Source: an uncultured Bacteroidales bacterium
GTDB taxonomy: Bacteria; Bacteroidota; Bacteroidia; Bacteroidales; UBA4417
DNA: 64,000 nucleotides
Direction: 5' to 3'
Assembly: GCA_903946925.1 (NCBI GenBank)
Contig: CAJAXK010000103.1
Location: 2,388 to 66,387 of the forward strand
The position numbers were made by a program, and so were the translations under genes. This document shows, piece after piece, positions 14,037 through 36,047 of the stretch (positions are counted from its first letter, which is position 1; each line of letters opens with the position of its first letter). The notes under the pieces are model-generated. The model searched no databases, was not told where the DNA came from, and saw only the letters and a list, made by a program, of their open reading frames with translations.

Positions 14037-14855
14037 TTATTTCACTACATGTTCCCATCTGTTGCTAAAACGCAAACCGGCAATTTTACCCCCGAGATTG
14101 GGACGCTGGCGGATGTAGATACTTCTGATTCTTTTAAGATCAGCATTACCCGTAACACTGGCTATTGCTGTCTCCCCTGATTCTTTTCCCCCAATTTTGG
14201 GGTTGATATACAAAGAAGCAGATTCAGCGCCTTTGGCTGAAGGGTTTACTTTAACAACAACAAAAACTGTTGTTCCGTAAGGAAAATCAGGTGACCAGGT
14301 TGTAGTAGTTTCTTTCCATCCCAAACCCAGGTTATAAAAGCCTTTATTTTCTGAAGATCTCACGCAAACACGTCCACGCTGCTGATTTCCTGTATAATTT
14401 CCATCAAGCGATAGAAACTGATCACCCGAATTTGATGCTTTGGTAATATTAACTAAGGCACCCAGATAAAATACTTCGTCGGTGTAGTCGCTCGATGATG
14501 TAAGGCTATAAATGGATGCCCGAACGGCAGCAGTTTCCGGATTGAGGATAATGGCTTTTCCCGCATTATTATCCACGTAAGTAGAAAAACTTAATTTACT
14601 TGGTTCTAAAACAGGAGAAACAGTTGGAGCATCTGCGGGATTGATTTTACCGTTGCGGTTCCATTGATTTTCCTTAATCGGGTTCGTATCATCCTGTGTA
14701 GTATTTGTATATTCCCCCTTTTCCAACGATAACTCTGAGCCAACAGCTCCAACAGTAAATAAAGTTTTGTAGTCGATTGGTAATTTTTGAGGATACTGTG
14801 CACTGGCAATCAAGGTGGCCATGCAAAACATTAGGATTGTTATACTTTTTTTCAT
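14037..14855 (-). CDS. Secreted single-domain protein; distant member of the shared N-terminal beta-sandwich family
   Basis: Likely start MKKSITIL at 14855 (track 14927). GKAI..YLGALV..VVVKV..ASLYINP..IRSIYIRQ..GLRFSNRW parallels the N-domain of 15043/24162/28659/32453. Confidence 0.7.
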   Translation of the reverse strand: MKKSITILMFCMATLIASAQYPQKLPIDYKTLFTVGAVGSELSLEKGEYTNTTQDDTNPIKENQWNRNGKINPADAPTVSPVLEPSKLSFSTYVDNNAGKAIILNPETAAVRASIYSLTSSSDYTDEVFYLGALVNITKASNSGDQFLSLDGNYTGNQQRGRVCVRSSENKGFYNLGLGWKETTTTWSPDFPYGTTVFVVVKVNPSAKGAESASLYINPKIGGKESGETAIASVTGNADLKRIRSIYIRQRPNLGGKIAGLRFSNRWEHVVK

Positions 14856-15042
14856 CTGTTTATTTTTTAATTTTTTACGGGTCAGATGGAATACGCCATG
14901 AGAATAATCATTTCGGTTGGTGAGCAAGTTTTCTGCTCATGGCTATTTCATACAATTTTTTTTATGCCCCATACTAATGACTGTGGGTTTTTGAAATACG
15001 AACAGCTTGCTAAGGCCAGTATTGTTAGTTATTATTGATTTC

Positions 15043-16098
15043 CTATTGGTTAATCAGTATTTTGAATGATTTAGTAACACCCCCTGCCGTAAACCGGGCT
15101 AAATATATCCCGGTTGTTAAACCCGAAACATCAAAGGATTCGGTATAACTTCCAGCCTCATGGCCAATGTTCTGAATCAAAGTATTGACAAATTGACCAT
15201 TAATATTATACAGCACAAGGTTCACATTGGAGTTGTCAGTTAAACTATATTCCAGGTTTAAAGTAGTGGCTGATGGATTGTTGAAGATTTTGACCCTGTT
15301 TTTTGCTGTAACCAATTCTGATAAACCCACCTGGCTTACTTTCGCAACAGCATTTGCCCAGGAACTTGAAACCCTTGCACCGCTTACATTGAAATTAGCT
15401 TTATTATTGCCGTTTACCCTGAACCTTATAGAGCTTAGATCCGATTTTAAAGCCGAAGGGTTAGAAATATCATCAATAACATCGGGAATAGGTTCTGTAG
15501 TTGATCCTAAAGTTGGATTTATGAAAAGCGATGAAGTTTCAGTGGCGAAATCATATTTCAAAACCACAAGAATTACGGCAAGTGTATCAGTAAATTCGGG
15601 TGCTCTCCATTTAACATCAGCACCCGTACCACTTCCCCTGGTAGTTCCCAATTTGAAGTTGGCAGTTACTGATCCCTTTCCTACCCAGACCTTTGGCCCT
15701 GAGTTTGCACTATCGCCAAGCCCAATGACTTCAGACTGGCTTTGTTTCTGGGCGACTCCTGCCTTAAATAGAAAGCTTAAATATACAGTACTGGTAACCG
15801 GCGTTTCAGTAAATAATTTATAACAATAGTAACCAGTTGCACCTGATAGGTACACATTGTTCATTGTTTTACCTTTATCGGAAAGCACGTAAGTACCATC
15901 AGTGGTTATGTATGTCAATGGAGGTGTAACAATGTTTCGCACAGGTACAACGGCAGGAGCGGTTCCTCCGCTTGTCCAACCAGGTGCAAAATCAAGATCT
16001 GAAACTGAGTAATCGAAAGTTTCATCCAGTAAAACCTGCCCTTGTGAAATCAGAAAAAATGAGCAAAGAGCAACAATTAAAGTGATTTTTTTATTCAT
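15043..16098 (-). CDS. T9SS-secreted protein: shared N-terminal domain plus type A CTD
   Basis: QVLLDETFDY...VYLSFLFKAG...GTTRG...LKYDF...SLFINP...GARVSSSW; CTD DVSGLTTGIY...KILINQ. Confidence 0.8.
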   Translation of the reverse strand: MNKKITLIVALCSFFLISQGQVLLDETFDYSVSDLDFAPGWTSGGTAPAVVPVRNIVTPPLTYITTDGTYVLSDKGKTMNNVYLSGATGYYCYKLFTETPVTSTVYLSFLFKAGVAQKQSQSEVIGLGDSANSGPKVWVGKGSVTANFKLGTTRGSGTGADVKWRAPEFTDTLAVILVVLKYDFATETSSLFINPTLGSTTEPIPDVIDDISNPSALKSDLSSIRFRVNGNNKANFNVSGARVSSSWANAVAKVSQVGLSELVTAKNRVKIFNNPSATTLNLEYSLTDNSNVNLVLYNINGQFVNTLIQNIGHEAGSYTESFDVSGLTTGIYLARFTAGGVTKSFKILINQ

Positions 16099-16178
16099 GG
16101 CGAATCAGGATTAGGTAAATTTTTGGTAAATCAATATAAAGCTGTTTCATAAACAACCACATAACCGGCCAAAGTCCT

Positions 16179-17558: not shown

Positions 17559-17667
17559 AATTTAGGGGTTAGGTTAATTGGGTTGAATGGTTGATTATCT
17601 GTCATTCTTGAAGCACTATTGGTGTTCTAAAGTTTTGAAATATTTTTGGGATCCGGAAAAATTTAAT

Positions 17668-17705
17668 ATTTTTCATTGCCGGTTTTTTGTCCGGCAATGA
17701 AAAAT
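17668..17705. terminator. Perfect 15-bp inverted repeat (terminator or mRNA-stabilising hairpin)
   Basis: atttttcattgccgg-ttttttgt-ccggcaatgaaaaat immediately after the stop of 17712..18320. Confidence 0.75.
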
Positions 17706-17711
17706 GCCGGT

Positions 17712-18320
17712 TTATTTTATAATAGCAGCCTCAAAAGTTTGCTTTGCTGTTGTGAGTATTGTTACACCTTCAGCAATTTGTCGGTCGATATTTGTGATTA
17801 AATCGCGTGTTTTTTTTGCATCGGCAATGGCTTTTGTAAAATCCGCCTTCGCAGCCTCCGAAACCTGGCCTGTTGCAGTACCAACTGCTGTTGATGCATT
17901 TAATAATTCGCACTCCACAACCAAATCATTCAAAGGTCGTCGGTCCGAAATAAACAAGCTATTGTGGAAAGCCTGCCCTGGCACACCAAACGACTTATAG
18001 GTATCGGTGATGTTCTTCATTGTGATATTCGGCCTGACTACCAGCGCGAGAGCCGTATCCAAAACTTTGAGGTATGCCGCTTTCTGGCTGGCAAACTTGC
18101 TTGTACTTGCTACCATGAAATTGCCTTTATCATAACCAATAACCGTGCTATCAACCATTGCTTTTTCGGTAGTTGCAAACAGGGTCAATTCCTGCCTGTG
18201 CTCTTCTACAGTTTTAGGTTGAGCGGCTTCTTCATCCTTTGTACATGAGCTGCCCCAAATAACCAGTGATACCATCAAAGGCAACCATATCATTCGTAAA
18301 CCAAGATTTATCTTTTTCAT
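17712..18320 (-). CDS. Lipoprotein downstream of SusD (helical, FIVAR-like repeats); candidate surface glycan-binding accessory
   Basis: Lipobox GSSC; two helical repeats ending ...AKQTFEAA; position directly after susD. Confidence 0.7.
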   Translation of the reverse strand: MKKINLGLRMIWLPLMVSLVIWGSSCTKDEEAAQPKTVEEHRQELTLFATTEKAMVDSTVIGYDKGNFMVASTSKFASQKAAYLKVLDTALALVVRPNITMKNITDTYKSFGVPGQAFHNSLFISDRRPLNDLVVECELLNASTAVGTATGQVSEAAKADFTKAIADAKKTRDLITNIDRQIAEGVTILTTAKQTFEAAIIK

Positions 18321-18338
18321 AAATTTTTCTTTTTTAGA

Positions 18339-19877: not shown

Positions 19878-19940
19878 TTTTATTGGGTTTTAAATCATTA
19901 TTGTGATGGTGTATTTGTAATGATATTTTGCAAAAATGTC

Positions 19941-22900
19941 CTAGAATGTAACATCAACTCCAAAGGCAAATGTCCGGTTAATAGGGTAAACACCTCTTTG
20001 ATATCCGTCAATTAAAGGGCTTGAATATGGGCCACTCGTTTTTCGTCCTTCTGGATTTACGCCATCATATTCATCAGACATCAGGTACAACAGGTTCTGT
20101 GCTGAGAAATACACACGTAAAGCAGAAAGTTTTATGGAGCGTACAAACTTTTTTGGAGCGGTGTAACCAAAGGTTAAATCGCGAAGTGCTGTATATGATC
20201 CGTTTACAATACCATAATCAGTAAGTAACAGGAATTTCCCGGCAGTATTGGTTCCATAAACGGTTTTGCCATCACCGGGGAAAGCAGGACTTACAAAACG
20301 GTTATCGGTATAGGCAGTATTAGTACGAAGCGTTTCATTGTAATTCATGTTACCATCAATAATATCAACACCCTGTACACCCTGGAAAAGAAAACTCAGG
20401 TCGAAATTCCTAAATGTGAACGTATTTGTTAGCCCCCATGTGAAATCAGGGAAAGGGTCTCCAAGAACAACGCGGTCGTAACTATCAATCTGGTAGTCAC
20501 CATTCTGGTTCACAACTTTTAGTCCTCCAATAACAGGAGTAAAATCGCCCCAATTAAATGGCATTCCGGTTTCCGGGTCTTTCATAGCCTTGGCAGCAGC
20601 AACATCTTCAAAAGTGAGATATACGCCGGCTGACTGGAACCCAAAATACTGAATGGCCTGTTCGCCAACGATAGCCCTGTAAACTTCGTTACGTTCGCCA
20701 AAATTATCTTCGTGGTCTTTGTTTCCATAGCCCAAAAGCTCGTTTTTATTCGCCGAGAGATTGGCTGTCAAATTCCATTTGAAATTTTTCTTATCAATAT
20801 TTACTGAGGAGAGTTCCAGTTCAATGCCATTATTGCTCACCTCACCAATATTATTCCAGTACGTTTGGTGTCCGGTGATGTACATTGATGGGGATTGCAA
20901 CAACATTGCCTTGGTTGTTGAATTGTAATATTCAACCGAAAGGTTCAAACGGCTCTTAAAAAATCCAAGATCAATACCAAAGTTAGCCTCCTGGGTTTGT
21001 TCCCACGTAATGTCGGGGTTTCCCAAGGCTGTGTTGTTGGAAGCCAAACCTGGATGAAGGGTCCCTATACCGCTCCCTGTTGGGTAATTGCTGGTATTTA
21101 AATAATTCATGTACGAATATTGGGGGATGTTGTTGTTCCCTGTCAAGCCGTAACTCACGCGCAACTTTAAATTCGTTAGCCAAACGATACCTTTCATAAA
21201 CTGTTCTTCAGATGCACGCCAACCAACGGAAGCAGCCGGGAAATTTCCCCATTTATGCCCTTCGGCAAACTTAGAGCTTCCATCGCTGCGGAAACTTGCC
21301 GATACAAGGTATTTTCCCTTATAAGAGTAGTTAATACGCCCTAAAGCCGAAACCATTGATTCGGTATAATAATAAGAAGTGGTACCAGGCAAATCCGGGC
21401 TGTCGAGGATAAGGGTTGAAGCCATGTTAAATGAAATAATTTCTTCGTCAGGAAAACCGGTGGCTACAATTGTATTTGCCTTGTTACTGATTTTTTGCGC
21501 TGTAAATCCCAGTAAAGCACCAAAATCGTGATTGCTTATTTTTTTTGCATAGTTCAAGGTATTTTCTGTCAACAAATCGGTCATGAATGTTCCTGTACGG
21601 GTAAGCTTATTTGGATCACCGGCTTTTGATGCTTCAGTTTGTAGTTTTTCATTGAATTCGCGATAAGTAACATAAGCGCCATTCGATGTTTTAAACTGAA
21701 GCCCTGGTATAATATCAATGGTCAGATACATATTGGATTGCATCCTGTAATCATCGGTCAGGATACTGGTACGGTCGCGTTGCGACACAGGATTATGCAT
21801 TGAAGACCCGGAAGCACTGGCAGAAGTAACACTCCATATTTCGTTATTTAATCCCATCCCGCTTAAATCAAGCCGGCCATAATGATACGGATGAGCATAA
21901 GTGCCTACAGGCTGGCCAGTTATAGCAGACGTTGCCTCGGTATGAGCAATTGGCATCCAGGTTGGGAAACGCAGATAACTGGTAAGATCTACACCGGGTG
22001 TTTCCTTTTTGCTGTAACTTGGATTCAGGTTAAACCCTAAAGTAATGTTTTTGGAAAGCTTCATATCCACTTTTGCGCGAAAACTGTACTTGTCGTACGA
22101 ACTGTTTTTCATTATGCCGTCCTCGCTGTTGAAATTTCCTGAAATATAATAATTGGTTCCACTGCTTCCCCCCGAGGCACTTAACTGATAATTGTTTTTC
22201 ATTCCATTTGGCCTAAGCGCTTCGGAAACCCAATCAGTTTCTTCACCAATATAGTTTATTAGCAAATATCCAAGCTGATCGCCTTCGTTAGTTAAATCGA
22301 AAGGCATTGTTGCCGAAGTTCCGTCAACCGAAGGATCCAATCTCCTCTGTTCAGCTTCCTGGGCGTACAGTTTCGTTTGTTCCGATTGGCTCAGAACCCC
22401 TGGCAATGTATAAGCACTTGTAATACCGCTATACATTTTAAAATTATATTTTGGTTTTTTGATGTTCCCCGATTTTGTGGTAATCAGTATAACCCCGTTT
22501 GCCGCGCGGGAACCGTACAAAGCAGATGATGCCGCGTCCTTCAATACTTCAATTGATTCCACATCACCCATGCTAACCATCGACATGCCATCGGCAACCG
22601 GAAATCCATCCACTACTACAAGCGGATCAATGTTTGTGCTAATTGATCCCATTCCACGCACCCGGATTTGAGGAGCTTCGCCTGCATAAGGATCAACATT
22701 TGCAACTTGCACCCCCGACATTTTCCCTTGCAAAGCCTGATCGAGCCTTGATACCGGAATTTCATCCAGTTTCTCAGCCTTTATGGAAGCGATTGAACCC
22801 GTTAAATGTGATTTTTTCTGTTTCCCATAAGCTACAACAACAAATTCGTCCAGTTTTTGGGCATTCTGTTTCAAGATAACATTAATAACTGACTGTGCTC

Positions 22901-23255
22901 CAACTTGTATTTCCTGAGTTACAAAACCAATAAATGAAAATACCAAGGTAGTGCTATCATCAGGAACATCAAGACTATAAGTACCATTGCTGTTTGATAC
23001 CACACCCGAGGTAGTACCTTTAATGATAATGCTCACACCGGGTAAGGGTACCTGCTGTTCATCGGTGACAGTACCGGTTACATTTTTTTTAGAAACCATG
23101 GTTTCAGATGATAGCGGAACTGTTCCGGTAAAATTGCCTGCCTCTAGGTTTATACCATTAAGCAGCAGAAACAACGCTGTTAGTGCTCCAATCCATCGAA
23201 ACTTAAAGGTTTCCATTTTTAGATAGGTTTTGCAATTCATCACATTTTTTTTCAT
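19941..23255 (-). CDS. susC: SusC/RagA TonB-dependent transporter
   Basis: Carboxypeptidase-like N-domain, IRVRG, PLVVVDG, IEVLKDAASSALYGSRAANGVILITTK, C-terminal ...GVDVTF. Confidence 0.97.
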   Translation of the reverse strand: MKKNVMNCKTYLKMETFKFRWIGALTALFLLLNGINLEAGNFTGTVPLSSETMVSKKNVTGTVTDEQQVPLPGVSIIIKGTTSGVVSNSNGTYSLDVPDDSTTLVFSFIGFVTQEIQVGAQSVINVILKQNAQKLDEFVVVAYGKQKKSHLTGSIASIKAEKLDEIPVSRLDQALQGKMSGVQVANVDPYAGEAPQIRVRGMGSISTNIDPLVVVDGFPVADGMSMVSMGDVESIEVLKDAASSALYGSRAANGVILITTKSGNIKKPKYNFKMYSGITSAYTLPGVLSQSEQTKLYAQEAEQRRLDPSVDGTSATMPFDLTNEGDQLGYLLINYIGEETDWVSEALRPNGMKNNYQLSASGGSSGTNYYISGNFNSEDGIMKNSSYDKYSFRAKVDMKLSKNITLGFNLNPSYSKKETPGVDLTSYLRFPTWMPIAHTEATSAITGQPVGTYAHPYHYGRLDLSGMGLNNEIWSVTSASASGSSMHNPVSQRDRTSILTDDYRMQSNMYLTIDIIPGLQFKTSNGAYVTYREFNEKLQTEASKAGDPNKLTRTGTFMTDLLTENTLNYAKKISNHDFGALLGFTAQKISNKANTIVATGFPDEEIISFNMASTLILDSPDLPGTTSYYYTESMVSALGRINYSYKGKYLVSASFRSDGSSKFAEGHKWGNFPAASVGWRASEEQFMKGIVWLTNLKLRVSYGLTGNNNIPQYSYMNYLNTSNYPTGSGIGTLHPGLASNNTALGNPDITWEQTQEANFGIDLGFFKSRLNLSVEYYNSTTKAMLLQSPSMYITGHQTYWNNIGEVSNNGIELELSSVNIDKKNFKWNLTANLSANKNELLGYGNKDHEDNFGERNEVYRAIVGEQAIQYFGFQSAGVYLTFEDVAAAKAMKDPETGMPFNWGDFTPVIGGLKVVNQNGDYQIDSYDRVVLGDPFPDFTWGLTNTFTFRNFDLSFLFQGVQGVDIIDGNMNYNETLRTNTAYTDNRFVSPAFPGDGKTVYGTNTAGKFLLLTDYGIVNGSYTALRDLTFGYTAPKKFVRSIKLSALRVYFSAQNLLYLMSDEYDGVNPEGRKTSGPYSSPLIDGYQRGVYPINRTFAFGVDVTF

Positions 23256-23277
23256 AGTAAGGTTAGTATTGATGCCC

Positions 23278-23384
23278 GAATGATAAAATTATATAGATGG
23301 GCTTGCGTAATCTCTAAATTATCAGCCTTGTTTTTAAAAAAATAGGTCAAATTGAAACTTATCAGTCAGGTTGATTGATAATTG
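23278..23384 (-). promoter_or_regulatory. Conserved 107-bp promoter/operator module upstream of susC
   Basis: Ungapped match to 31409..31515 and 36048..36154; -7-like TAATTTTA (23284-23291, minus strand) and palindrome ttatcagtca-ggt-tgattgataa. Confidence 0.8.
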
Positions 23385-23981
23385 TTAAACACTTTTACTC
23401 AGGAAAAGGAAACTTGATAATTACCTTTGGCTTGATAGATTCCCACAGACAAATAGTATCTAATATTGAGTTCTTTATTGGCTGTTGGGTAAAGTATGAC
23501 GAGAAAAAAGTGGCAAGAATCTGGAGATAAACATTCCGTTTTGCTCTCCACAAAAATGTTTATCTAATTCTATCATGCTTTAATCCTTCAAATGAAAGGC
23601 AAATCGAATTTTTGAATATTTCAGGTTAGAAGCATCCTCAATCAGCTAATAAAACTGCTGTCTCCTCGGAATATTACATCCACAGATACACGCTATTCAA
23701 GTTCTGTGAGTTTACGAAGCAATATTCAACAAGTAAACTTCTACTGGCAAATATACAGAAATCGAACGATTGCTTTGCAGGGTTTGAATAATTACAAAAT
23801 ATTCATTGCTTGATAACAATGCTGAAGGTACTTAAAGTGTCTAAAAAACATAATGTCAAAGCATTAACAAACATCAAATTGCTAATTTTGTTAAAAACTG
23901 CTATCTGAAAATTTGAAAATTTGAATGAATGTTTACTCTTTTAAAATGTCGAAAGTCTGTTTTGTAAGGATAAAAATGTTG

Positions 23982-24025
23982 CATAAAAAAAACACAGTTA
24001 CCGGCATAAAGCAGATAACTGTGTT
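23982..24025 (-). terminator. Intrinsic terminator (homologous to 32036..32078)
   Basis: A8-cacagttacc...gataactgtg stem with U-tract on the minus strand. Confidence 0.7.
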
Positions 24026-24161
24026 GTGAATAGTTTGATTTACCGTTTACTGACTTCCAATAAAAATGGTCAAGGCTGGACAATTAAAGATAACCAACTA
24101 ATTTCAATCGTTCTTTATCAATAATATCGTATTGAACGATTGGCTATTCCTGCTAAACAAT

Positions 24162-27100: not shown

Positions 27101-28598
27101 TATGTTCTTCGCCCCTTCGATCTTTTTTGTTCGCTTCCCTAACCACCGCTTTTTCGAGGATAAAACCATTTATTGAATAGGATGGGAATGTTCCATTTGC
27201 AGGGGTTTCAGGAACAGGTATACCCCAAGTTCCATCGCCGAGGTCAGTATGTATTGTATCTAAAATCACATAACTGGTAATAAAAACTGCTGAAGCTGCT
27301 GATGGGGTGGAATCAAAATAGGTGGTCCCGTCGCCTTTGGCTATTACTACAAAAGTATAGGATGTGCCGAACGACAAGCCAGTTACGGCCAAACTTGAAG
27401 TTGCCTGACCCGTGGCATTGGATGTGCTTACAAGCTGAGTGCCAAGATATACCCTGACTTCATACCCTGTAGCATTGGCAACGGGAGTCCAATTTGCGGT
27501 GAAACCGCTTGCCGTAATATTCGTTGCAATTCCTACCACAGGCGGCAAAAGGCCTAAAGTTGTAAATGCAGTAGATTCAGCGGATGGGTCGGAATTTGTA
27601 TAATTTATACCATCCCCTACTGCTGTTACCTTATATGTATAAGTGGTACCAGATGAAAGCCCCGATATGGCAACGCTTTCGGTAACCTGCCCACTTGCAT
27701 TGGTAGTATTAACAAGAGTGGTTCCAGAATAAACTTTAACAATATACCCGGTTGCATTAGCTACCTGGGTCCAGTTTGCTGTAAAACCCGAGTTCGAAAT
27801 TGCAGATGCTACGCCAACTATTGGCGATGGCAGTTTAGGTATCTGAACGGCTACTGCAGAAGCCCATGAGGTTGATACCCGTGCTCCACTAACATTATAC
27901 TTTGAGACAGAGGTGCCATTTGCCCTGAACCAGAAGTTGTTCAAAGAAGTTCTTATTGTAGCCGAGGTATTATCAAAGACCTCAGGTGTTGTTGGTTCTG
28001 TGCCGGAAATTATAGGATTTATATAGATTGATGAAGTTTGGGTTGCAAAATCATACTTTAAAACAATCAGAAAGACCTCGTTTACGTCTGCAAACTCGGT
28101 TGTTCCCCATTTGATGTCAGCACTCGACTGGCTTCCCCTGGTTGTACCAAATCTGAAATAAGTTGTATTTATAGCACCTTTTCCAACATATACTTTTGCA
28201 CCTGCATTTGTATTTATTGCCATCCCAAAAACCTCTGATTGTGATTGAACCTGAGTAACCCCTGGTTTATATATAAAAGTTAAATATACGGGACCAGTTG
28301 TTACAGGTGTAGAGGTAAAGGGTTTTAAGGAATAATAAGCTGTGGCAGATGAAATATCGCAATTTATTGTTTTTCCTGCACCGGAAAGGAAATACGGGCC
28401 ACCAGAATTTGAGTAGGTAAGTGCCGGTGATACAATATTTCTTCCTGTACCTGTGGTGAGTGTTCCAGCAGTTGTCCATGTAGGTTCAAGTGCCAGATTT
28501 GAAACTGTGTAGTCAAAGGTTTCATCATACAAAACCTGTCCTTTGGAGTTCAGAAATAAGGAACACAGTGCTAGTAAAAGTATTAGTATTTTTTTCAT
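24162..28598 (-). CDS. Large T9SS-secreted FN3-repeat protein (family paralog P1)
   Basis: Shared N-domain; FN3 repeats (GFTANWT..NATGY.V.VY...GL..GTTYTY.V.A); central KKDRRG module; GYHLVGNPYPS domain; type A CTD ...GVYIVKV...KVVVTQ. Confidence 0.88.
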   Translation of the reverse strand: MKKILILLLALCSLFLNSKGQVLYDETFDYTVSNLALEPTWTTAGTLTTGTGRNIVSPALTYSNSGGPYFLSGAGKTINCDISSATAYYSLKPFTSTPVTTGPVYLTFIYKPGVTQVQSQSEVFGMAINTNAGAKVYVGKGAINTTYFRFGTTRGSQSSADIKWGTTEFADVNEVFLIVLKYDFATQTSSIYINPIISGTEPTTPEVFDNTSATIRTSLNNFWFRANGTSVSKYNVSGARVSTSWASAVAVQIPKLPSPIVGVASAISNSGFTANWTQVANATGYIVKVYSGTTLVNTTNASGQVTESVAISGLSSGTTYTYKVTAVGDGINYTNSDPSAESTAFTTLGLLPPVVGIATNITASGFTANWTPVANATGYEVRVYLGTQLVSTSNATGQATSSLAVTGLSFGTSYTFVVIAKGDGTTYFDSTPSAASAVFITSYVILDTIHTDLGDGTWGIPVPETPANGTFPSYSINGFILEKAVVREANKKDRRGEEHINDFNLDKNSYNSLVVFPEINSVEQIEIHAYTGTAERSFVLEEYNTSTSVWDLIGTYVYNTASKASGLDSIYVIPISRAVPTKFRVRNNGSGGMSVVQVITRLTNPVTLPAPVVGIATDITRTGFTANWTPVTNATGYEVFLYKRTSLISKTNTTGQAVSALAITGLIPDSTYTYKVMAKGDNFVNFADSYLSAASAPFTTLSPIAPSIQDPTATNVLNNSATLGGNITYDGDNAIIERGTVWNTSTGVTITNNKLADTSTSIGVFSHVRTPLPAKSHIFYKAYASNSVGTTLTLESDFYTLADEPINQVTNFTAVATGATTVELSWTAVAADGYFILQKQGSSAPTGIPMDATVYPAGTVLGDGSVAANISSGTTAAFSIGGLSPNSTYSFCIMSVNSDGLNAATYNYYTVSSPTATTTTLAPPAGTYFWNQSGTASWAIPGNWSPTRTNPQINDVLEFNSGGNIIVTNVPDQTIGQLLLSNNTNLELQASAPVTLTIKGETGVDLDVPVGSALSIAQVAGGINIAFATGATAAIGGNFSTNSGINVGSGTFTVASGASFITNGTITGDVTIERDITAGPEIKHHFVSPITTNVINSSTSVFNGSNLEKYLEPNGTWASLVLNDPILPLTGYSINYPTGNTRTLSFVGALQPTPVAYTNLSYTNPTTPPGNESGYHLVGNPYPSGINPELCTLSGDLNAFAYVWNGANYNPLSIGTSDFPGIIASLQGFVVRTGSATNSLTLTSASKTLGGTFLKNTASLQDRLKLTVNGNGYSDVAYIRFVTGSTTGFDQALDAYKLAGITMAPQMYSILTDTKAAVNTLPSYVTSQNVPLGLMVGAASTYTISAEGIESFNPTVPIFLQDLKLGSVQDLRINPVYSFTAAPGDLENRFKVWFTVITSNKELDNSGIRTFSANGTIHVVQDGIAEGDIYVYSTSGQLVASSSLNSGETKLYTNASGVYIVKVVTKKLTVTQKVVVTQ

Positions 28599-28658
28599 AT
28601 AATATTGTTTTTAAGCGAATTACTGGATTGGTTGTTTTTTTTATTGAATATTCAGCTT

Positions 28659-31349
28659 CTAAGGCATTTTCTTACCGGCAAATCCAGTTGCATTTGCATT
28701 TATAAGTTGCAAATCTGTTTCATTTACCATCCCATCCCCATTCACATCATTTGCAACATAACCGGTAACAAAGTTTGATGCATCGTTGTCAACAACAACC
28801 AAATCACCTGCATCAACAATGCCATCCTGGTTTACATCGCCGGCATACATACCAAACACACCGCTTCCAAGGTCTTTCATGTTATTGCCAAATGCTTGTG
28901 AAACTGAGGTGCTGAAATTATAATCCATTGTGGTTCCTGCAAATGAAACCGGGACGGAACTCCAAAGTTCGACGCTGTTGCGATGTTTGATTACGATGTA
29001 GTAGGAACCAGAAGCAAGATATGAGATAGAGTCGATTGACAGAGTTCCACCTGTGCTTAAATCTATTGCATTAAAAGTAAAAGCGGTTGCGTAAGGCGCT
29101 GTTGAATTGTGCAATTCAATGCTTACCTGATCAGCAATTTCAGGGGCAAATTGAGCAGCCGAACTCTTTTGAGCCTGGTTCATTGTATTGGATCCTGCGT
29201 AAAGACTTTCGAGGAAAACTGTGAGGTTGAGGGTTTTAACAGGTGGTGAAAGCAGGGTAAATGGTGCTGAAGCTACTGATAGATACGAGTCGGAGTAGTT
29301 TACAAAACCATCGCCTTTTGCAAGAACCTTGTACGTGTATGTTGAATCGGGGATAAGCCCTGTTATGGCAGCGGACGAAATGGTTTGACCACTTACGCTG
29401 CTTGTGTCAACTAAATTTGTACGCTTATAAACAAACACCTTATAGCCTGATGCATTGGTTACGGGTGTCCAGTTGGCAGTAAATCCAATATGAGTAATAT
29501 CCGTAGCAGTACCTACTACCGGCGATGGCAGCGTGGCAGGATTTGTATGCCTGGTAATTACCTGTGCTATATTCATCCCGCCACCTCCGGTGTTTCTCAC
29601 CCTGAACTTGGTTGGGACTGTTCTGGTGATAGGTATAACATATATGGAATCGAACCCCGAGTTCTTGCTTGCTGTGTTATATATGTAATTCCCAACTAAA
29701 ACCCATGCACTTGTACCTGAATTATACTCTTCTACTGCAAAAGGTCTTTCGGCTGAACCTGTATATGCATGCAATTCAATTTGTTTCACTGAATCTACAA
29801 CCGGAAACACAACTGCGCCTGCATTGGAGAGATTGTCAAGAGCAATGTCGTTAACATGCGTTTCGCCTCTCCGGTCTCTCTTGGTAATAGCTCTGATAAC
29901 AGATTTTTCCATAACAAAACCGTTTATTGAACTTGATGGGAAAAAGCCGTTTGCAGGTGTGGAAGAAGCAGGTGTACCCCAGGACCCATCTCCAAAATCG
30001 GTGTGAATAGTATTCACATTCATATAGCTTGTAATGAAAACCGGAGAAGCAGTTGAAGGTGACGAATCAAGATATGTTGCACCATCACCCTTTGCTATTA
30101 TCACAAAAGTATAAGAAGTACCAAATGACAAGCCAGTAATCGCCAGACTTGCAGTTGCCTGACCGGGGGCATTTGTGGTGCTAACGAGAAAGGTCCCCAG
30201 GTATACCTTAATATCATAACCACTAGCGTTAGCAACGGCTGTCCAGTTTGCAGTGAAACCGTTTGCTGTAATATTTGTTGCAACTCCAACTGTTGGTTGC
30301 GTAAGGCCCAATGTTATAAATGCAGCCGATGCTGCTGAAGGATCTGAACTGGAAAATGTTGTGCCATTGCCAATTGCTGTAACCGTATATGTATAAGTAG
30401 TTCCTGATGCAAGACCAGATACGGTTACGTTCTCAGTAGCCTGTCCGCTGGCATTTGTTGTGTTTACAAGGGTAGCCCCGGAATAAACTTTAACCGTATA
30501 CCCTGTAGCATCAGGTACCTGGGTCCAGTTAGCAGTAAAACCTGTAAGCGAAATTGAGGATGCTGTACCAACAATAGGTGAAGTTAGTTTAGGAATCGCA
30601 ACAATCGCCACTGCATCAGTCCAAGAACTGGAAACTCTTGCACTACTTAGATTGAAATTTGCTTTATTATTACCGTTATATCTAAATCGAATTGTACTAA
30701 GTGTATTTTTGCCTGTTCCTGATACACTGTCAGCTGCGTTTGCAGCCGGTTGTGAAGAAGATCCTAATGTTGGAGTGATAAAAATCGATGAAGTTAATTT
30801 TGTAAAATCATATTTTAGAACAATTATAAATACGGCATTCAAGTCAAAGTATTCTGTCACCCCCCATTTTATATCTGCACTGCCTGTATTGCCTCTGGTC
30901 GTACCGAACCTGAAACCAGTTGTAAGTCCCTTCCCAACCATTACTTTAGGCCCAGTGCTAGCTCCATCCCCGAGTCCAATTACTTCAGATTGACTTTGAC
31001 CTTGAGCTACTCCGGCTTTGTATAAAAAGGATAAATATACTGATCCGGAATTAACGCTACCAAATGCTTTATAGCAAATATAATCGGCAGCCCCATTTGT
31101 ATAATCACTATTTATTTTTTTTCCCTGACCGGAAAGCAAATAAGTTCCATCGGTAGTTACATAAGTTAATGCAGGAGTAGCAATATTTCTTCCCGTGCCG
31201 ACGACCGGGGGTGTTCCCGATGAAGTCCATGTTGGTTCTAGATCAAGTTTTGCAACACTATAATCAAATGTTTCATCCAGCAATACCTGTCCGAAAGTGC
31301 TCGTAATCAACGAGAACAGGGCAACTATTAAAGTAAAGTTTTTTTTCAT
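28659..31349 (-). CDS. Secreted FN3-repeat protein with C-terminal dockerin-like Ca-binding repeats (paralog P2)
   Basis: Shared N-domain, 3 FN3, central module, then LNLTVFLESLY...YYIVIKHRNS domain and GDVNQDGIVDAGD / NDVNGDGMVNETD; no type A CTD. Confidence 0.88.
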   Translation of the reverse strand: MKKNFTLIVALFSLITSTFGQVLLDETFDYSVAKLDLEPTWTSSGTPPVVGTGRNIATPALTYVTTDGTYLLSGQGKKINSDYTNGAADYICYKAFGSVNSGSVYLSFLYKAGVAQGQSQSEVIGLGDGASTGPKVMVGKGLTTGFRFGTTRGNTGSADIKWGVTEYFDLNAVFIIVLKYDFTKLTSSIFITPTLGSSSQPAANAADSVSGTGKNTLSTIRFRYNGNNKANFNLSSARVSSSWTDAVAIVAIPKLTSPIVGTASSISLTGFTANWTQVPDATGYTVKVYSGATLVNTTNASGQATENVTVSGLASGTTYTYTVTAIGNGTTFSSSDPSAASAAFITLGLTQPTVGVATNITANGFTANWTAVANASGYDIKVYLGTFLVSTTNAPGQATASLAITGLSFGTSYTFVIIAKGDGATYLDSSPSTASPVFITSYMNVNTIHTDFGDGSWGTPASSTPANGFFPSSSINGFVMEKSVIRAITKRDRRGETHVNDIALDNLSNAGAVVFPVVDSVKQIELHAYTGSAERPFAVEEYNSGTSAWVLVGNYIYNTASKNSGFDSIYVIPITRTVPTKFRVRNTGGGGMNIAQVITRHTNPATLPSPVVGTATDITHIGFTANWTPVTNASGYKVFVYKRTNLVDTSSVSGQTISSAAITGLIPDSTYTYKVLAKGDGFVNYSDSYLSVASAPFTLLSPPVKTLNLTVFLESLYAGSNTMNQAQKSSAAQFAPEIADQVSIELHNSTAPYATAFTFNAIDLSTGGTLSIDSISYLASGSYYIVIKHRNSVELWSSVPVSFAGTTMDYNFSTSVSQAFGNNMKDLGSGVFGMYAGDVNQDGIVDAGDLVVVDNDASNFVTGYVANDVNGDGMVNETDLQLINANATGFAGKKMP

Positions 31350-31408
31350 AACTTTTGGTTTAAATCGGTTTTATGGTTAGGTGTTTTGGTTTCTAAGTTT
31401 GGTTAGCG

Positions 31409-31515
31409 GAATGATAAAATTATACAGAACATACTTGCTTTTATTGAAGTTATCAGCCTTGTTTTAAAAAAAATAGGTCAAAATAAAACTTATCAATCAA
31501 ATTGATTGATAATTG
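31409..31515 (-). promoter_or_regulatory. Conserved 107-bp promoter/operator module upstream of P2
   Basis: ttatcagccttg..aaataggtcaaa..ttatcaatca-aat-tgattgataa (perfect 10-3-10 palindrome). Confidence 0.8.
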
Positions 31516-32035
31516 AAAAGGTATTTATACCTAAAAAAGGGAATAGCTGGAATAGATAAATTTTTGTTGAAGATATTTCTAAATTAAACACGATAAAACC
31601 AAATTTGCAAAAATGATCATCACAAAAGAGGTCGAATATAATGGTTTTTAAAGATAGCTTTTACATAAGACAACTCAATGGTTCAGGGTGATATGTGTTA
31701 CCTCCCTTCAAAATCGTGTTAAGTCAATCCTTGCAAAGGTTATTACAGTAACTCACCTACAATTGGGCATAACTTGATTATATTTTCGTTTTTGGACTTA
31801 CTAGCAGGTTATTTTGAAAAACATATATGCTAAACAAACACTTTTTCACAGATTGTCAATGAATGCCTTTGTGTTACATTAGAATCTCTAAAATCGTTAG
31901 ATGTTGTATCAGGCTTTTGCAAGATTCAAGAAAAAAAAATCTGCCCTGTAAATAAGCAGTTTGCTTTAGTTTGTTTTCTTAAGTGTTTTTGTGGAAAAGG
32001 CTGCATGATAGGTTCGGAAGGAGGAGTTGAAATTA

Positions 32036-32078
32036 CATAAAAAAACACAGTTACCCAAAATAAGCGGGATAACTGTGC
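32036..32078 (-). terminator. Intrinsic terminator after the small sorting-signal gene
   Basis: A7-cacagttaccc...gggataactgtg stem. Confidence 0.7.
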
Positions 32079-32115
32079 TAATCATTCAACATGAGCCTTG
32101 AAGGGCAATCGTTAT

Positions 32116-32355
32116 TTATTCTCCGAAAGTATTTACACGCTCCCCGTGTACTTTTCTTACTCCATAAGCTATTGCTAAAGTTAACAATATTAATGTACCG
32201 TTACCGATTGGTGCGCTCGGGCCAACAGGATTGTTTGTTGGTCCACCAGGTGCATTTGGTGAAAAACCACCATTCGGATGAGGCTGTGCAAACATAAGCA
32301 GAGGTGCTGTTATCAAAAAGGCTGCAATAACAGTTACCAGTATCTTTCTTTTCAT
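32116..32355 (-). CDS. Small PID-CTERM-like protein (signal peptide, Pro/Gly linker, PIGNG motif, TM helix, basic tail)
   Basis: ...AQPHPNGG...PSAPIGNGTLILLTLAIAYGVRK; directly downstream of a T9SS cargo gene. Confidence 0.75.
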   Translation of the reverse strand: MKRKILVTVIAAFLITAPLLMFAQPHPNGGFSPNAPGGPTNNPVGPSAPIGNGTLILLTLAIAYGVRKVHGERVNTFGE

Positions 32356-32452
32356 ATCTTTTTGTTTTATTTTTGTTTCTAATCTTTACTTAAGGATTTT
32401 GGGGTCAGGGTTTTGGGGTTGTTGTGTTGCCCCTCACCCCTCGCCTTGTCTA

Positions 32453-35400
32453 TTAGTTAACAAACACTTTTTTAACCAACGTATTATCCTTGCTAATCAC
32501 TTTTACTATATAATTACCTGTTCGATTGAGGCCAATCTCATTCATGCCTTTTGCTGATGTTTGGGTCGAAATCAACTCACCTAGTACATTATAGACGAAA
32601 ATATCGCCTTCAACCCGGTCTTTGAAATTAACATAAACTGTTTTTCCGTAACTATATATAAGTGCAGTCGAACTTTCTATATCGTTTGTTGACAACGGGC
32701 CAAAATGTAGTACAAAACGCTGCGCTGTTTCGCCTGGAATAAAGTTAAACGAATAGGAACTTTTCAACAAATCCGTAAGGATCCCAGTTTTAGTATCTTC
32801 CAGGGTTACCTTCGAAAACTCACCTGTTTTGGCAGCTTTGATACTAAAAAAACCTGCTTCAACTGCTGTAAATCCAACAGGAACATCGGATGTTGCGGGC
32901 AAACCATTAATTGCCAGTTTTTCACCCATTGGGGTTATTGAATAAATCTGCGGCAATTTAGAGTTTTTGGTGCTTATAATCTTATATGCATCAAATTGCC
33001 CATCATGCTCTATACCTGCTTGTTCATTGAAATAAACCAATGCCTGATCGGAGTAGTTTGATCCGGTTGCTTCGAGAATCAATAATTTCGGGTTCCCTGA
33101 TTTGTAGAAATTGTTTGCTCCTGAATGTGAGCGTTGTGCATTACCCAGTTCAAATATCCCAGGTGCTGTTGCTTTTACAAAAAATCCTTGCATCGGAGGA
33201 ACAAATTGCGAATTGCTCTGACCTGGTATCCCTTTTATATAAGGAAGATAATTACTGGAAGCAGCATCAAGTACATAAACCACATTATCCATTCCTGCAG
33301 GGATAATAACATTTTCCCAATCCAGTGAAGACACAAATGGATTTCCCATCAAATTGTAACCGTCGCTACCAAAAGTGAATGACCTGGTTTTAGTTCCCAG
33401 GTTCAAGTCGCCGGTGAATGAAACAGTATTTGTAGTACTTAAGGTTGAATAAAGAGCATAGCCTTCCATTACGTTCAAAAGAGTAGCGTCACTTGTAATA
33501 TCGGAAAACAAGGAAGAGGTTTCAGAGTAATTCTGCATGTACATACCCGAAAATACACCTGCTGTTGCAACCACAACAGGGGATGATACAAGATGCCAGT
33601 CATCGGTGCTTGGTGGAGGATCGCCAGTAAAATACCTTTGCACTGTTGCAGTACCGGATACGGTTAAAAATCCGTTATCCAGCAAAGTAGCAGTACCGGC
33701 AGCAGTTGACCCAAAAAGTATGTTATGACAGGTTCCGGCTGCCGAAAGTGTTGGATACCTTACTAATCCTGCTGGTATGGTTACATCAGTAAATGCGCCC
33801 GGTGTGGATGGGTTCCAGTTTCCAGGTATGGACCATTCGTTGCTTTCAGCACCTGTCCAGGTAGCAGAAGCAGGAGGTGAAAGTATTGTAACAGGTGTTG
33901 ATGCTGAAGAGAGGTAGGAGTCGGCATAATTTACATAACCATCACCAGTAGTCCGCACTTTGAACGTATACGTCGAATCGGATATAAGCCCTGTTATGAC
34001 TTTGGATGCTGTAGATTGGCCACTCACACTGGTTTGGCTGACGAAATTGTCGCGTTTGTAAACAAATACCTCATACCCTGTTGCGTTAAGTACTGGAGTC
34101 CAGTTTGCTGTAAATCCGAAGCTTGTAATATCCGATGCCGCTCCTATTACAGGAACCGGAAGTGTAACCGGATTTGTAAGCCTTGTTATTACCTGGGCTA
34201 TATTCATCCCACCACCACCGGTGTTTCTTACCCTGAACTTGGTAGGGACAGACCTGCTGATAGGAATAACATATATTGAGTCATAACCCGAAGCCTTGCT
34301 TGCCGTGTTATATGTGTATGTACCAATAGGAATCCATGTACTTGTACCTGCATTATACTCATCCAATGCAAAAGTTCTTTCGGCTGTGCCTGTATATGCA
34401 TGCAATTCAATCTGTTCCACTGAATTTACTTCCGGAAAAACAACAACTCCTGCATTGGTGAGATTGTCGAGAGCAATATCGTTTATGTGTGTAAACCCTC
34501 TCCGGTCTTTTTTAGTAATGGCTCTGATAACTGCTTTTTCCATGACAAACCCGTTTATCGAACTTGATGGGAATAAGCCGTTTCCAGGAGTGGCACCTGC
34601 TGGAGTTCCCCATGTTCCATCGCCAAAGTCGGTATGGATTGTATTTACAATACTATATGTCGTGATAAAAGTCGGCGATGCAGCTGAAGGTGACGAATCA
34701 AGGTATGTTACACCATCTCCTTTTGCAATTACAACAAAAGTATAGGATGTGCCAAATGAGAGACCAGTAATTGCCAGGTTCGTGGTAGCCTGACCGGGAG
34801 CATTTGATGTGCTTACTAGCAATGTACCCAAATATACCTTAACATCATACCCAGTTGCATTGGCAACCCCAGTCCAGTTTGCTGTAAAACCGCTTGTTGT
34901 AATATCTGTTGCTACTCCTACTGTTGGTTGTAAAAGCCCCAAGGTTGTAAATGCAGCCGATGCCGTAGAAGGATCTGAACTGGAATAACTAGTGCCATTG
35001 CCAATTGCTGTAACCGTGTAAGTATAAGTAGTACCAGATGCAAGACCGGATATGGCCACACTTTCAGTTGCCTGCCCACTGGCATTGGTCGTACTTACAA
35101 CTGTTGCTCCCGAATAAACTTTAACGCTGTAACCGGTTGCATTAGCCACCTGGGTCCAGTTTGCAGTAAAGCCCGTAACCGCAATTGAAGATGCTGTCCC
35201 TACAACAGGCGAAGTGAGTTTAGGGATCTGTGTAAAAACTGCTTCAGCCCATGTTCTTGATACCCTGACCCCACCAATATTATATTTCATACTTGAGGTG
35301 CCTTGAGCCCTGACCCACAAATTATTAAGGGAAGTTCTGGCTGTACCGGAATTGTCCGAAATATCGGCTACAGGTTCAGTACCGGAAATGATTGGATTTA

Positions 35401-35989
35401 TAAAAATGGAAGAAAATTGAGTAGAAAAATCATATTTCAAAACTATAAGAATGACCTCATTAACATTAGCAAATTCGGTAGAAGCCCATTTAACATCACC
35501 ACCTGACTGGCTTGATCGGGTAGTACCAAATCTAAATGAAGTAGTTGTTACAACCCCTTTACCAACATAAACCTTTGGGCCTGCACTAGTTCCGGTTGAC
35601 ATTCCAAAAACCTCTGAATTAGTTTGATTTTGGATTACACCGGCTTTATACATGAAAGTTAAATAAATCGGACCTGTTGAGATAGGAGTTGCAGTAAAAG
35701 GCTTTAAAGAGTAGTAGCTAGTGGCATTAGTAATATCGGAATTCATTATTTTTCCTGTACCAGATAGATAATATATTCCTCCCGAATTTGAGTACGACAA
35801 GGCTGGTGAAACAGTTGGATCTAGTATATTCCTTCCTGTTCCAGCAAGTAAAGTTCCTGAAGTTGTCCAACCAGGTGCAGAAGCCAGATTTGGAACTGTA
35901 TAATCAAAGGTTTCATCCAGCAGTACTTGTCCGAAAGTACTCGTAATCAACGAGAACAGGGCAATCATTAAAGTAAAGTTTTTTTTCAT
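32453..35989 (-). CDS. Large T9SS-secreted FN3-repeat protein (paralog P3)
   Basis: Shared N-domain, 3 FN3, central module, WTGAESNEWSIPGNW, GYNLMGNPFVSSLDW; CTD GNYIVKV...KKVFVN. Confidence 0.88.
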   Translation of the reverse strand: MKKNFTLMIALFSLITSTFGQVLLDETFDYTVPNLASAPGWTTSGTLLAGTGRNILDPTVSPALSYSNSGGIYYLSGTGKIMNSDITNATSYYSLKPFTATPISTGPIYLTFMYKAGVIQNQTNSEVFGMSTGTSAGPKVYVGKGVVTTTSFRFGTTRSSQSGGDVKWASTEFANVNEVILIVLKYDFSTQFSSIFINPIISGTEPVADISDNSGTARTSLNNLWVRAQGTSSMKYNIGGVRVSRTWAEAVFTQIPKLTSPVVGTASSIAVTGFTANWTQVANATGYSVKVYSGATVVSTTNASGQATESVAISGLASGTTYTYTVTAIGNGTSYSSSDPSTASAAFTTLGLLQPTVGVATDITTSGFTANWTGVANATGYDVKVYLGTLLVSTSNAPGQATTNLAITGLSFGTSYTFVVIAKGDGVTYLDSSPSAASPTFITTYSIVNTIHTDFGDGTWGTPAGATPGNGLFPSSSINGFVMEKAVIRAITKKDRRGFTHINDIALDNLTNAGVVVFPEVNSVEQIELHAYTGTAERTFALDEYNAGTSTWIPIGTYTYNTASKASGYDSIYVIPISRSVPTKFRVRNTGGGGMNIAQVITRLTNPVTLPVPVIGAASDITSFGFTANWTPVLNATGYEVFVYKRDNFVSQTSVSGQSTASKVITGLISDSTYTFKVRTTGDGYVNYADSYLSSASTPVTILSPPASATWTGAESNEWSIPGNWNPSTPGAFTDVTIPAGLVRYPTLSAAGTCHNILFGSTAAGTATLLDNGFLTVSGTATVQRYFTGDPPPSTDDWHLVSSPVVVATAGVFSGMYMQNYSETSSLFSDITSDATLLNVMEGYALYSTLSTTNTVSFTGDLNLGTKTRSFTFGSDGYNLMGNPFVSSLDWENVIIPAGMDNVVYVLDAASSNYLPYIKGIPGQSNSQFVPPMQGFFVKATAPGIFELGNAQRSHSGANNFYKSGNPKLLILEATGSNYSDQALVYFNEQAGIEHDGQFDAYKIISTKNSKLPQIYSITPMGEKLAINGLPATSDVPVGFTAVEAGFFSIKAAKTGEFSKVTLEDTKTGILTDLLKSSYSFNFIPGETAQRFVLHFGPLSTNDIESSTALIYSYGKTVYVNFKDRVEGDIFVYNVLGELISTQTSAKGMNEIGLNRTGNYIVKVISKDNTLVKKVFVN

Positions 35990-36047
35990 ACTTTTTGGTT
36001 TAATCGGTTTTATGGTTGGTTGATTTGGTTTCTAAGATTACGTAGCA

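Follow-up and report, generated by a model that had tools for sequence, protein, structure and literature searches.

Putative surface glycan binders with an unannotated, seemingly exchangeable N-terminal module in a polysaccharide utilisation locus of an uncultured Bacteroidales bacterium

What do five paralogous secreted proteins, encoded beside the susC and susD genes of an uncultured Bacteroidales bacterium, contribute to a polysaccharide utilisation locus (PUL)? Their genes lie in a window of 64,000 nucleotides (the whole stretch of DNA analysed here, from contig CAJAXK010000103.1 of assembly GCA_903946925.1), and had been singled out in an original prediction, made from the DNA letters, as a family with a common uncharacterised N-terminal domain on interchangeable anchors. 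All five minus-strand open reading frames (ORFs) exist, and we call their products P_A to P_E; the coordinates at which the shared module was said to open are the low (stop) ends of the genes, and the N-terminal modules (N-modules, or heads) lie at the high ends. In our judgement the five genes rather probably encode a paralogous set of secreted, non-catalytic, surface-displayed glycan binders of the PUL, anchored by the type IX secretion system (T9SS) or tethered by a dockerin, and co-regulated with SusC/D. The five genes are as follows.

32453..35989, minus strand: P_A, 1178 amino acids; signal peptide, N-module (35225-35929), two fibronectin type III (FN3) domains, central module (34169-34660), FN3, unannotated region of about 400 amino acids, T9SS C-terminal domain (CTD)
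28659..31349, minus strand: P_B, 896 amino acids; signal peptide, N-module (30594-31289, a P_D-like head), FN3, FN3, central module (29538-30029), FN3, region of about 128 amino acids, type I dockerin (28698-28844), no CTD
24162..28598, minus strand: P_C, 1478 amino acids; signal peptide, N-module (27840-28538), FN3, FN3, central module (26786-27275), FN3, extra Ig/FN3 region, region of about 470 amino acids homologous to the C-terminal region of P_A, T9SS CTD (24171-24359)
15043..16098, minus strand: P_D, 351 amino acids; signal peptide, N-module (15337-16038), T9SS CTD (15049-15288)
14037..14855, minus strand: P_E, 272 amino acids; signal peptide, short linker, divergent N-module (14040-14798), no anchor

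The N-module is about 232 amino acids long and in P_A to P_D directly follows a signal peptide of the signal peptidase I (SPI) type, the mature end being the glutamine just before the module, in the starting motif Q-V-L-x-D-E-T-F-D-Y. The original prediction spoke of the same head on different anchors, but there are two head types, P_A/P_C (71% identical) and P_B/P_D (62%), with about 50% identity between types (49-55% for the remaining pairs), and the distant P_E, which is 21-28% identical to the other four. The P_E gene starts at the ATG at 14855, giving 272 amino acids as in its orthologues in the related loci L001 and L002, and not at the TTG at 14927. P_E was matched to P_D by BLASTP (E 4e-4 over 89 amino acids) and, over residues 61-271, by a hidden Markov model (HMM) built from 22 P_A-to-P_D-type modules only (E 1.2e-8); both searches make it a real, distant member, and the predicted domain common to all five proteins stands. 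Across 333 N-module segments, Y43, Y86, K161, N174 and R222 (numbering of mature P_D) are conserved in at least 90%, with Y43 and K161 absent from P_E in the alignment. Histidine is absent from the N-modules of P_A to P_D and from the conserved columns of the 333 segments, and both the N-module and the central module have a net charge of about zero.

Behind their heads, P_A, P_B and P_C carry the predicted FN3-FN3-central-FN3 core (residues ~253-703), whose domains are each 65-84% identical among the three, above the 51-70% of their N-modules; the central module accounts for 163 amino acids of it. The C-termini differ, as had also been anticipated. The T9SS profile TIGR04183 (cut-off 23) is matched by P_D (38.9 bits), P_C (31.3) and P_A (23.6), whereas P_B matches Dockerin_1 at residues 836-884 (26.9 bits with the whole protein, 31.5 with the tail; cut-off 22.9), and P_E has nothing C-terminal of its module; P_B and P_E are thus without a CTD. 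P_A and P_C have in common a further unannotated region of about 400 amino acids before the CTD (28% identity, E 1e-37). All signal peptides end in ...FGQ, ...KGQ, ...QGQ or ...SAQ with no lipobox cysteine, in agreement with the earlier view of these proteins as non-lipoproteins, unlike SusE and SusF, and Pfam and NCBIfam scans placed none of the five in a catalytic family, again as expected. The genome of the window contains three tandem, full-length genes for the PorU sortase (contig C259, 51391-62739; 1233-1320 bits, cut-off 420), and several sortases, together with strong and borderline CTDs on the cargo, may be relevant for anchoring. It also holds 12 cohesin matches, 11 of them over the cut-off, with cohesins on contigs C57, C451, C300, C84 and C235, and two of the cohesin ORFs match a CTD profile (on C451, 647 amino acids; on C300, 744 amino acids). 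Because these CTD-bearing cohesin ORFs occur in the same genome, a T9SS-anchored cohesin scaffold that accepts P_B is plausible. Dockerins are present on 20 ORFs of this genome, three of which also carry an N-module: P_B, an esterase on contig C247, and a protein of 3554 amino acids on contig C293.

Neither the N-module nor the central module was matched in Pfam (E<=10) or NCBIfam (E<=0.01), and searches of the PDB with sequences and profiles of the modules returned only CTD matches or noise. The unannotated status given to both in the original prediction is therefore borne out, and the two modules are undescribed in the libraries searched (Pfam, NCBIfam and PDB). Single Pfam scans of 47 members of the N-module family (alignment A4) gave no common family except the CTD. 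Carbohydrate-binding module (CBM) families of Pfam gave no match at E<=10 for the modules of the window and one stray match among the 47 members (Agarase_CBM, E 0.074). For N-module against central module, hhalign gave a probability of 0.16%. Relatives, among 40 and 120 listed proteins, are named only 'hypothetical protein', 'fibronectin type III domain-containing protein', 'T9SS type A sorting domain-containing protein' and, once, 'beta strand repeat-containing protein'; their precomputed Pfam lists hold linker, CTD, dockerin, PKD, esterase and a few other families, each on part of the homologues, and no Pfam family is common to all N-module carriers among those listed. The ESM Atlas holds no model for the N-module of P_D; its model of one homologue, P0154 (predicted TM-score 0.63), has structural neighbours at TM 0.55-0.63, all in unannotated parts of other proteins. 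The Atlas leads DUF6645, Sialidase-like_CBM (35% of one cluster) and Polysacc_lyase (23% of one cluster) found no support in the Pfam scans, and an apparent link to PF14099 through the protein L103_3648 was an artefact of CTD columns in alignment A4, which disappeared with an HMM of the N-module only. A literature search of titles and the openings of abstracts, together with a term search of PMC13377030, gave no description of the N-module family.

The original prediction held the head constant and the anchors exchanged; instead, the head has been swapped between orthologous bodies. The body of P_B is nearest to that of P_A (79% identity) despite its P_D-like head. Two dockerin proteins of 899 amino acids from other samples, P0189 and P0191, are orthologues of P_B, with 91% identity in the core and 93% in the tail, and yet their heads are 52-54% identical to the head of P_B and 80-88% identical to that of P_A, while a further protein, P0200, has a head 90% identical to that of P_B on a body only 65% identical. 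In the relative L003, whose array is colinear, DNA identity is 83-92% in all segments of P_A, P_B and P_C except the signal-peptide stretches of P_A (77%) and P_B (80%) and the N-module of P_B, where it falls to 61% (676 aligned bases, 49 gaps) between flanks of 80% (signal peptide) and 85% (FN3); the remainder of the P_B gene, the signal-peptide stretch apart, is at 85-92%. A FastTree phylogeny of 331 N-module segments placed the P_B head within the P_D clade (25 rows, local support 100) and the P_A head with P0189, P0191 and the paralogue of the related genome G401 (support 99). The head is the fastest-diverging, recombining part of these proteins. The mismatch of heads between orthologous bodies, taken with the drop in DNA identity at the P_B N-module, thus identifies the distal module as a putative recombining cassette. 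This exchange of heads between strains and between paralogues is a new observation of the present study, and it fits a determinant of specificity and, equally, a surface epitope under diversifying selection.

Sequencing runs were also compared with the array. The word share of 24000-36400 was 0.95-0.98 in four runs of one lake-water study, two of which are flagged as a possible source, and 0.25-0.57 in five runs of three other studies; no RNA run was among those listed. Contigs from runs X3, X5, X7 and X9, which are low-depth, single, and placed on the window at 85% likeness, give hints of alternative head arrangements. Those from X3, X5 and X7 include pieces identical or near-identical to the P_B head of the window; those from X9 do not cover 30624-31037 and have loose ends within the P_B head; and one low-depth X5 contig links 30336 to 34968, the homologous offset between P_B and P_A.

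Fusions to recognisable enzymes give an indication of how the modules are used. The N-module, FN3 and central module precede a BD-FAE esterase in L096_9983 and P0049 (by Pfam), and the same fusion occurs in L095_1628 and L101_9998 (by phmmer to the esterase part of the L096 protein, E<=1e-133) and in P0148 (by phmmer, E 8e-113). In L098_2549 and L100_8384 the central module is joined to the esterase without an N-module, and L096_249 (L096:249-3146) has the order beta-helix, FN3, central module and CTD, its beta-helix part being a homologue of the 459-amino-acid protein encoded between susD and P_D in the window. Among 120 homologues listed for the P_A core, 10 carry PF20434 and so show the esterase fusion. 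On contig C247 of the window's own genome, an N-module protein with Big_5, cadherin-like, BD-FAE and dockerin domains adjoins a CBM96-FN3-dockerin protein. In CAZy usage, a CBM is a module that stands alone, with anchors only, or on several catalytic domains. Both modules are discrete in this sense, both being found on BD-FAE esterases, the central module on the beta-helix protein and the N-module on DUF2334. Because they are fused to esterases, and the central module also to the beta-helix protein, both modules behave like carbohydrate-binding modules, and this apparent accessory role favours the predicted binding function. The fusion genes are followed in their loci by SASA-type acetylesterases and alginate-lyase-like genes, and because these acetylesterases and lyases adjoin the fusions, the substrate is suggested to be an acetylated as well as sulfated uronan.

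A block of about 110 nucleotides, holding a perfect 10-nucleotide inverted repeat (TTATCAATCA-N3-TGATTGATAA) and a 33-mer, is conserved before susC, P_B and P_A, at the following places.

36040..36160 (approximate limits), minus strand: block before P_A; palindrome 36125-36151, 33-mer 36089-36121
31400..31520, minus strand: block before P_B; palindrome 31486-31512, 33-mer 31450-31482
23270..23390, minus strand: block before susC; palindrome 23355-23381, 33-mer 23319-23351

A mismatch-tolerant scan of the 6.17-Mb assembly found the inverted repeat with the 33-mer at these three places only. The related genome G401, with a syntenic PUL at about 75% protein identity, has kept the block before susC, and none was found before its single large paralogue; in the window's lineage the susC control region was therefore copied before P_A and P_B. 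We infer from the shared block that susC, P_A and P_B are co-regulated. The promoter in common with susC that the original prediction had described thus holds for P_B and P_A and not for P_C, which starts 60 nucleotides after P_B and has no copy of its own.

How far this association with carbohydrate loci extends depends on the breadth of family considered. At thresholds of E<=1e-3, E<=1e-10 and E<=1e-30, a profile of the five N-modules recovered 702, 234 and 76 clusters (50% identity), respectively. At E<=1e-8, 75 of 401 Bacteroidota species genomes (the genome of the window included) and 53 of 180 genera have a match, two of the listed matches covering C-terminal columns only. The window's genome has 11 copies, five in the window and six elsewhere, and two further matches to the CTD only. 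Among the 150 best representatives the N-module starts at or before residue 40 in 111, and 48 also contain the central module, which in every case follows the N-module. For the P_A core (residues 1-705), 329 relatives (90% identity clusters) were recovered at E<=1e-10, which among those listed come only from metagenome-assembled genomes (MAGs) labelled Paludibacter sp., Bacteroidales, Bacteroidia and Tenuifilaceae. The central module was not found in the 400 other Bacteroidota species genomes with a narrow three-sequence profile, and a first metagenome scan for it gave no match.

Genomic context was sampled at two levels, and the resulting counts come from small, non-random samples. For the superfamily, 20 high-scoring loci in 20 other Bacteroidota genomes were taken from the top of the 401-genome list; none has a SusC or SusD homologue within ~10 kb (phmmer, E<=1e-4), and no SusD was seen among the 92 proteins scanned with Pfam at 18 of the 20 loci, namely the product of the N-module gene and those of the two genes flanking it on either side. 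Neighbours in those scans included DUF5689 (three loci, once fused), endonuclease I (two), an exo/endo-phosphatase (one), TonB receptors other than SusC (three), CBM9-like domains (two) and a pectic acid lyase (one), and a tie of the superfamily to extracellular nucleic acid or another polyanion is possible. The loci in which DUF5689, endonuclease I and exo/endo-phosphatase are neighbours of the N-module or fused to it are among L058, L061, L064, L065, L069 and L075, and on contig C348 of the window's genome an N-module adjoins a lamin-tail-domain protein. For the clade of the window, the sample consisted of 15 metagenome loci that encode near relatives of P_D and of the N-plus-central architecture; nine hold PL6, PF05426-type or PL7 lyases, sulfatases, SusC/D, a hybrid two-component sensor/regulator (HTCS) or a homologue of the 459-amino-acid protein, and the remaining six are contigs of 5.1 kb or less. 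The gene pair P_D then P_E recurs in L001, L002 and L090, a homologue of the 459-amino-acid gene precedes a P_D-like gene in L001, L002 and L102, and L001/L086 has a syntenic PUL. A second PUL-like locus in the window's genome (contig C324; loci L019 and L020 cover C324 and C247) has SusC/D, a CBM96 protein and an HTCS, and then an N-module gene. Co-occurrence with PL6 and sulfatase PULs, which the original prediction proposed as a check, is thus seen for the window's clade only, and of the refuting condition that it named, one half, the lack of PUL association, applies at the level of the superfamily.

From 35989 to about position 1 of the window all genes are on the minus strand, in the order P_A, a 79-amino-acid ORF, P_B, P_C, susC, susD, a 202-amino-acid lipoprotein, the 459-amino-acid CTD protein, P_D and P_E. 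P_E is followed by two PL6 genes, sulfatases, an alginate-lyase-like gene (PF05426, 3181-4425), a further sulfatase, a DUF2334 protein and, last, a partial ORF, with four sulfatases following the PL6 genes. The HTCS gene is divergent, and beyond it are genes of uronate catabolism (UxaC, a PfkB kinase, an SDR and an MFS transporter). Lyase, sulfatase and uronate catabolism genes are thus combined at this locus, which we therefore take to be a PUL for a uronate-containing, sulfated polymer. The neighbouring features are given below.

36321..40400, plus strand: HTCS; Pfam Reg_prop, Y_Y_Y, HisKA, HATPase_c, Response_reg, HTH_18
32116..32355, minus strand: 79-amino-acid ORF between P_A and P_B; signal peptide, then a Gly/Pro-rich middle and a 'PIGNG + hydrophobic + basic' tail at the C-terminus
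19941..23255, minus strand: susC, SusC-like TonB-dependent transporter; TIGR04056, 820.6 bits
18339..19877, minus strand: susD, SusD-like protein; Pfam SusD_RagB, SusD-like_3
17712..18320, minus strand: 202-amino-acid lipoprotein (lipobox GSSC) in the SusE/F position; adjoins susD also in L001, L002 and L102
16179..17558, minus strand: 459-amino-acid secreted protein with T9SS CTD; weak, sub-threshold DUF5123 (beta-helix-like) match
10514..13737, minus strand: two PL6-type (Chondroitinase_B) lyase genes, the first with T9SS CTD

The 79-amino-acid ORF has a weak PID-CTERM match (NF046080, E 0.0054, 16.6 bits, below the cut-off of 26) and a terminator-like hairpin downstream of it (31941-31959), and it is uncertain whether it is part of the system. 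The 459-amino-acid CTD protein, for which a PDB search gave no relative, is regularly encoded beside N-module genes and is a candidate for an unclassified beta-helix enzyme of such PULs. A strong hairpin with a stem of 15-16 bp (17668-17705) lies between its gene and that of the 202-amino-acid lipoprotein, and may be an intra-operon terminator or attenuator. The partial ORF (3-1001, minus strand) bears a weak likeness to the hyaluronate endo-lyase family of BT3328 (NF058554, E 7e-14, well under the cut-off); it adjoins the DUF2334 protein (1031-1783, minus strand), and DUF2334 is fused to N-modules in P0003 and P0248. At the other end, an ORF of >2336 amino acids (56991-63998, plus strand), with PKD_6/PKD repeats and NHL-like stretches, runs off the window. 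An Rfam scan of 13000-41000 gave no match, and no relics of the modules were found in the spacers 23256-24161 and 31350-32452.

If the five proteins are glycan binders, the N-module and the 163-amino-acid central module would be carbohydrate-binding modules for the substrate of the PUL, an anionic, uronate-containing polymer that would be sulfated and probably acetylated, with the FN3 domains serving as spacers. The CTD proteins would be fixed on the cell surface by the T9SS sortase and P_B plugged via its dockerin into a cohesin scaffold, and in this way the cell surface could present the polymer, at several distances, to T9SS-secreted lyases and SusC/D. Ligand or target specificity would be set by the head, which would be swapped as a cassette among paralogues and strains. 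Several points weigh against this interpretation. The N-module superfamily is found mostly outside carbohydrate loci, as the 20 sampled loci without SusC/D illustrate, and glycan binding is therefore not to be assumed family-wide. P_D, with one module and a CTD in 351 amino acids, is built like small secreted enzymes such as the PL7-CTD proteins of locus L103, and the conserved polar set Y43, Y86, K161, N174 and R222 could be a catalytic site. With a net charge near zero, the modules offer no electrostatic indication that they bind polyanions. Finally, the interpretation does not explain how P_B and P_E, which have no CTD, would cross the outer membrane.

Alternatively, one of the two unannotated modules, most likely the N-module, might be a new catalytic domain, for example a beta-jelly-roll-type lyase or another polymer-modifying enzyme, with the paralogues as isoenzymes on different anchors. 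The resemblance of P_D to the PL7-CTD proteins of L103, which have 339-343 amino acids, and the conservation of the five polar residues over the 333 segments speak for such an enzyme, and the N-module motif Y-K-A-G-V-x-Q resembles the signature of PL7 alginate lyases (Alginate_lyase2), a family like the N-module in size and in having a short motif. PL28 was weakly matched (E 0.02) in one of the 47 members scanned, and PF14099 occurs on 23% of the proteins in one Atlas neighbour cluster. However, no lyase HMM matched consistently, PF08787 being found at E<=10 in none of the 47 members and in none of the window's modules; the motif is mid-domain, not near the C-terminus; and because the P_A to P_D N-modules contain no histidine, a PL7-type Gln/His/Tyr site is impossible (the PL7 catalytic set being Gln/His/Tyr/Arg). 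P_E is without Y43 and K161, and L103_3648, the sole near-cut-off PF14099 protein, is no N-module member once the CTD columns are removed. Catalysis, which we consider unlikely, is also opposed by the accessory-module pattern, with both modules attached to esterases and the central one to a beta-helix protein as well, and by the occurrence of the superfamily mainly in non-carbohydrate loci.

A second alternative is that the proteins are general surface adhesins or coat proteins that bind particles, cells or matrix polymers including DNA, or variable decoys against phages or grazers, their location in a PUL reflecting co-expression during colonisation of particles and not capture for import. 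Outside PULs the superfamily is widespread as the N-terminal part of T9SS cargo (75 of 401 genomes; start at or before residue 40 in 111 of 150), DUF5689, endonuclease I, a lamin-tail-domain protein and giant repeat proteins are among what is found beside it or fused to it, and cassette-like replacement of heads among close relatives is typical of surface proteins under diversifying selection. In the window's clade, by contrast, the modules are repeatedly tied across organisms to lyase, sulfatase and esterase genes (9 of 15 loci) and fused to carbohydrate esterases, and the susC promoter/operator block has been duplicated before P_A and P_B. We consider an adhesin or decoy role unlikely for the set in the window, and favour a role as glycan binders of the PUL.

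Comparison with known systems places such binders as a variant of PUL-associated glycan binders rather than a categorically new system. Like surface glycan-binding proteins (SGBPs) of the SusE/SusF type, the five proteins are encoded in a PUL with susC and susD, are multi-domain and beta-rich with no catalytic domain, are poorly conserved in sequence, and are presumed to hold substrate at the surface. SusE/SusF-type SGBPs are lipoproteins of the signal peptidase II (SPII) type, with a lipidated cysteine, encoded just downstream of susD, a place taken here by the 202-amino-acid lipoprotein; the five proteins have instead SPI signals and a T9SS CTD, a dockerin or no anchor, three of their genes are upstream of susC with two under duplicated promoter copies, and none matches a SusE/F family. 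Modules of 160-230 amino acids that stand alone or are linked through FN3 to catalytic domains or dockerins are also known as CBMs of T9SS-secreted or cellulosomal enzymes, an example being CBM96, described as alginate-specific in PMC9971899. Within the window's genome CBM96-FN3-dockerin proteins adjoin N-module proteins (C247, C324), but the CBM96 family PF24517 was found in none of the 47 members, and hhalign of the N-module against the genome's two CBM96 modules gave 0.09%. Against 11 Laminin_G_3 domains from the same genome, the N-module segment VLKYDF...SLFINP aligns with the strand pair W-H-V-x-x-x-Y-D...L-Y-V-N-G of this ConA-like fold, with an hhalign probability of only 2% (E 0.024, 35 columns) and no Pfam match, which makes it a lead and not a membership. 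With the cohesin-dockerin cellulosomes of Clostridia and Ruminococcus, the system has in common the type I dockerin of P_B and the cohesin ORFs of the genome; it differs in its Gram-negative host, in at least two cohesin ORFs with a T9SS CTD in place of SLH or sortase anchors, and in non-cellulolytic cargo. A more far-reaching interpretation, which we put forward as speculative and rather unlikely, is that the modules are two new carbohydrate-binding families (or, for the N-module, a lyase family) for sulfated or acetylated polyuronates, borne on a T9SS and cohesin-dockerin scaffold of freshwater Bacteroidia with a recombining head; this would amount to a Gram-negative, cellulosome-like capture apparatus that is re-targeted by head swapping, and P_B, which has no CTD, might become surface-bound in it by riding on a CTD-bearing cohesin partner.

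Models of PULs rest on the lipoprotein binders of gut Bacteroides. The set in the window suggests a different solution, in which binders would be anchored by T9SS or tethered by dockerins, encoded in two cases behind a duplicated copy of the susC promoter, and provided with a head that recombines between strains; hundreds of relatives, as yet unnamed, occur in MAGs of Paludibacter-like bacteria, Bacteroidales and Tenuifilaceae. If the binding role is true, the N-module and central module would found two new CBM families directed at acidic polymers, for instance extracellular polymeric substances of an alginate-like, sulfated or acetylated kind, would give a handle on the capture of acidic polymers by uncultured Bacteroidia in anoxic freshwater, and would provide the cohesin-dockerin systems of Bacteroidota with a first class of cargo of assigned function. 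Should the modules instead be catalytic, they would constitute a new enzyme family. The combination of unnamed modules, diverse anchors, a duplicated promoter and head swapping makes these proteins a good target for structural and biochemical study.

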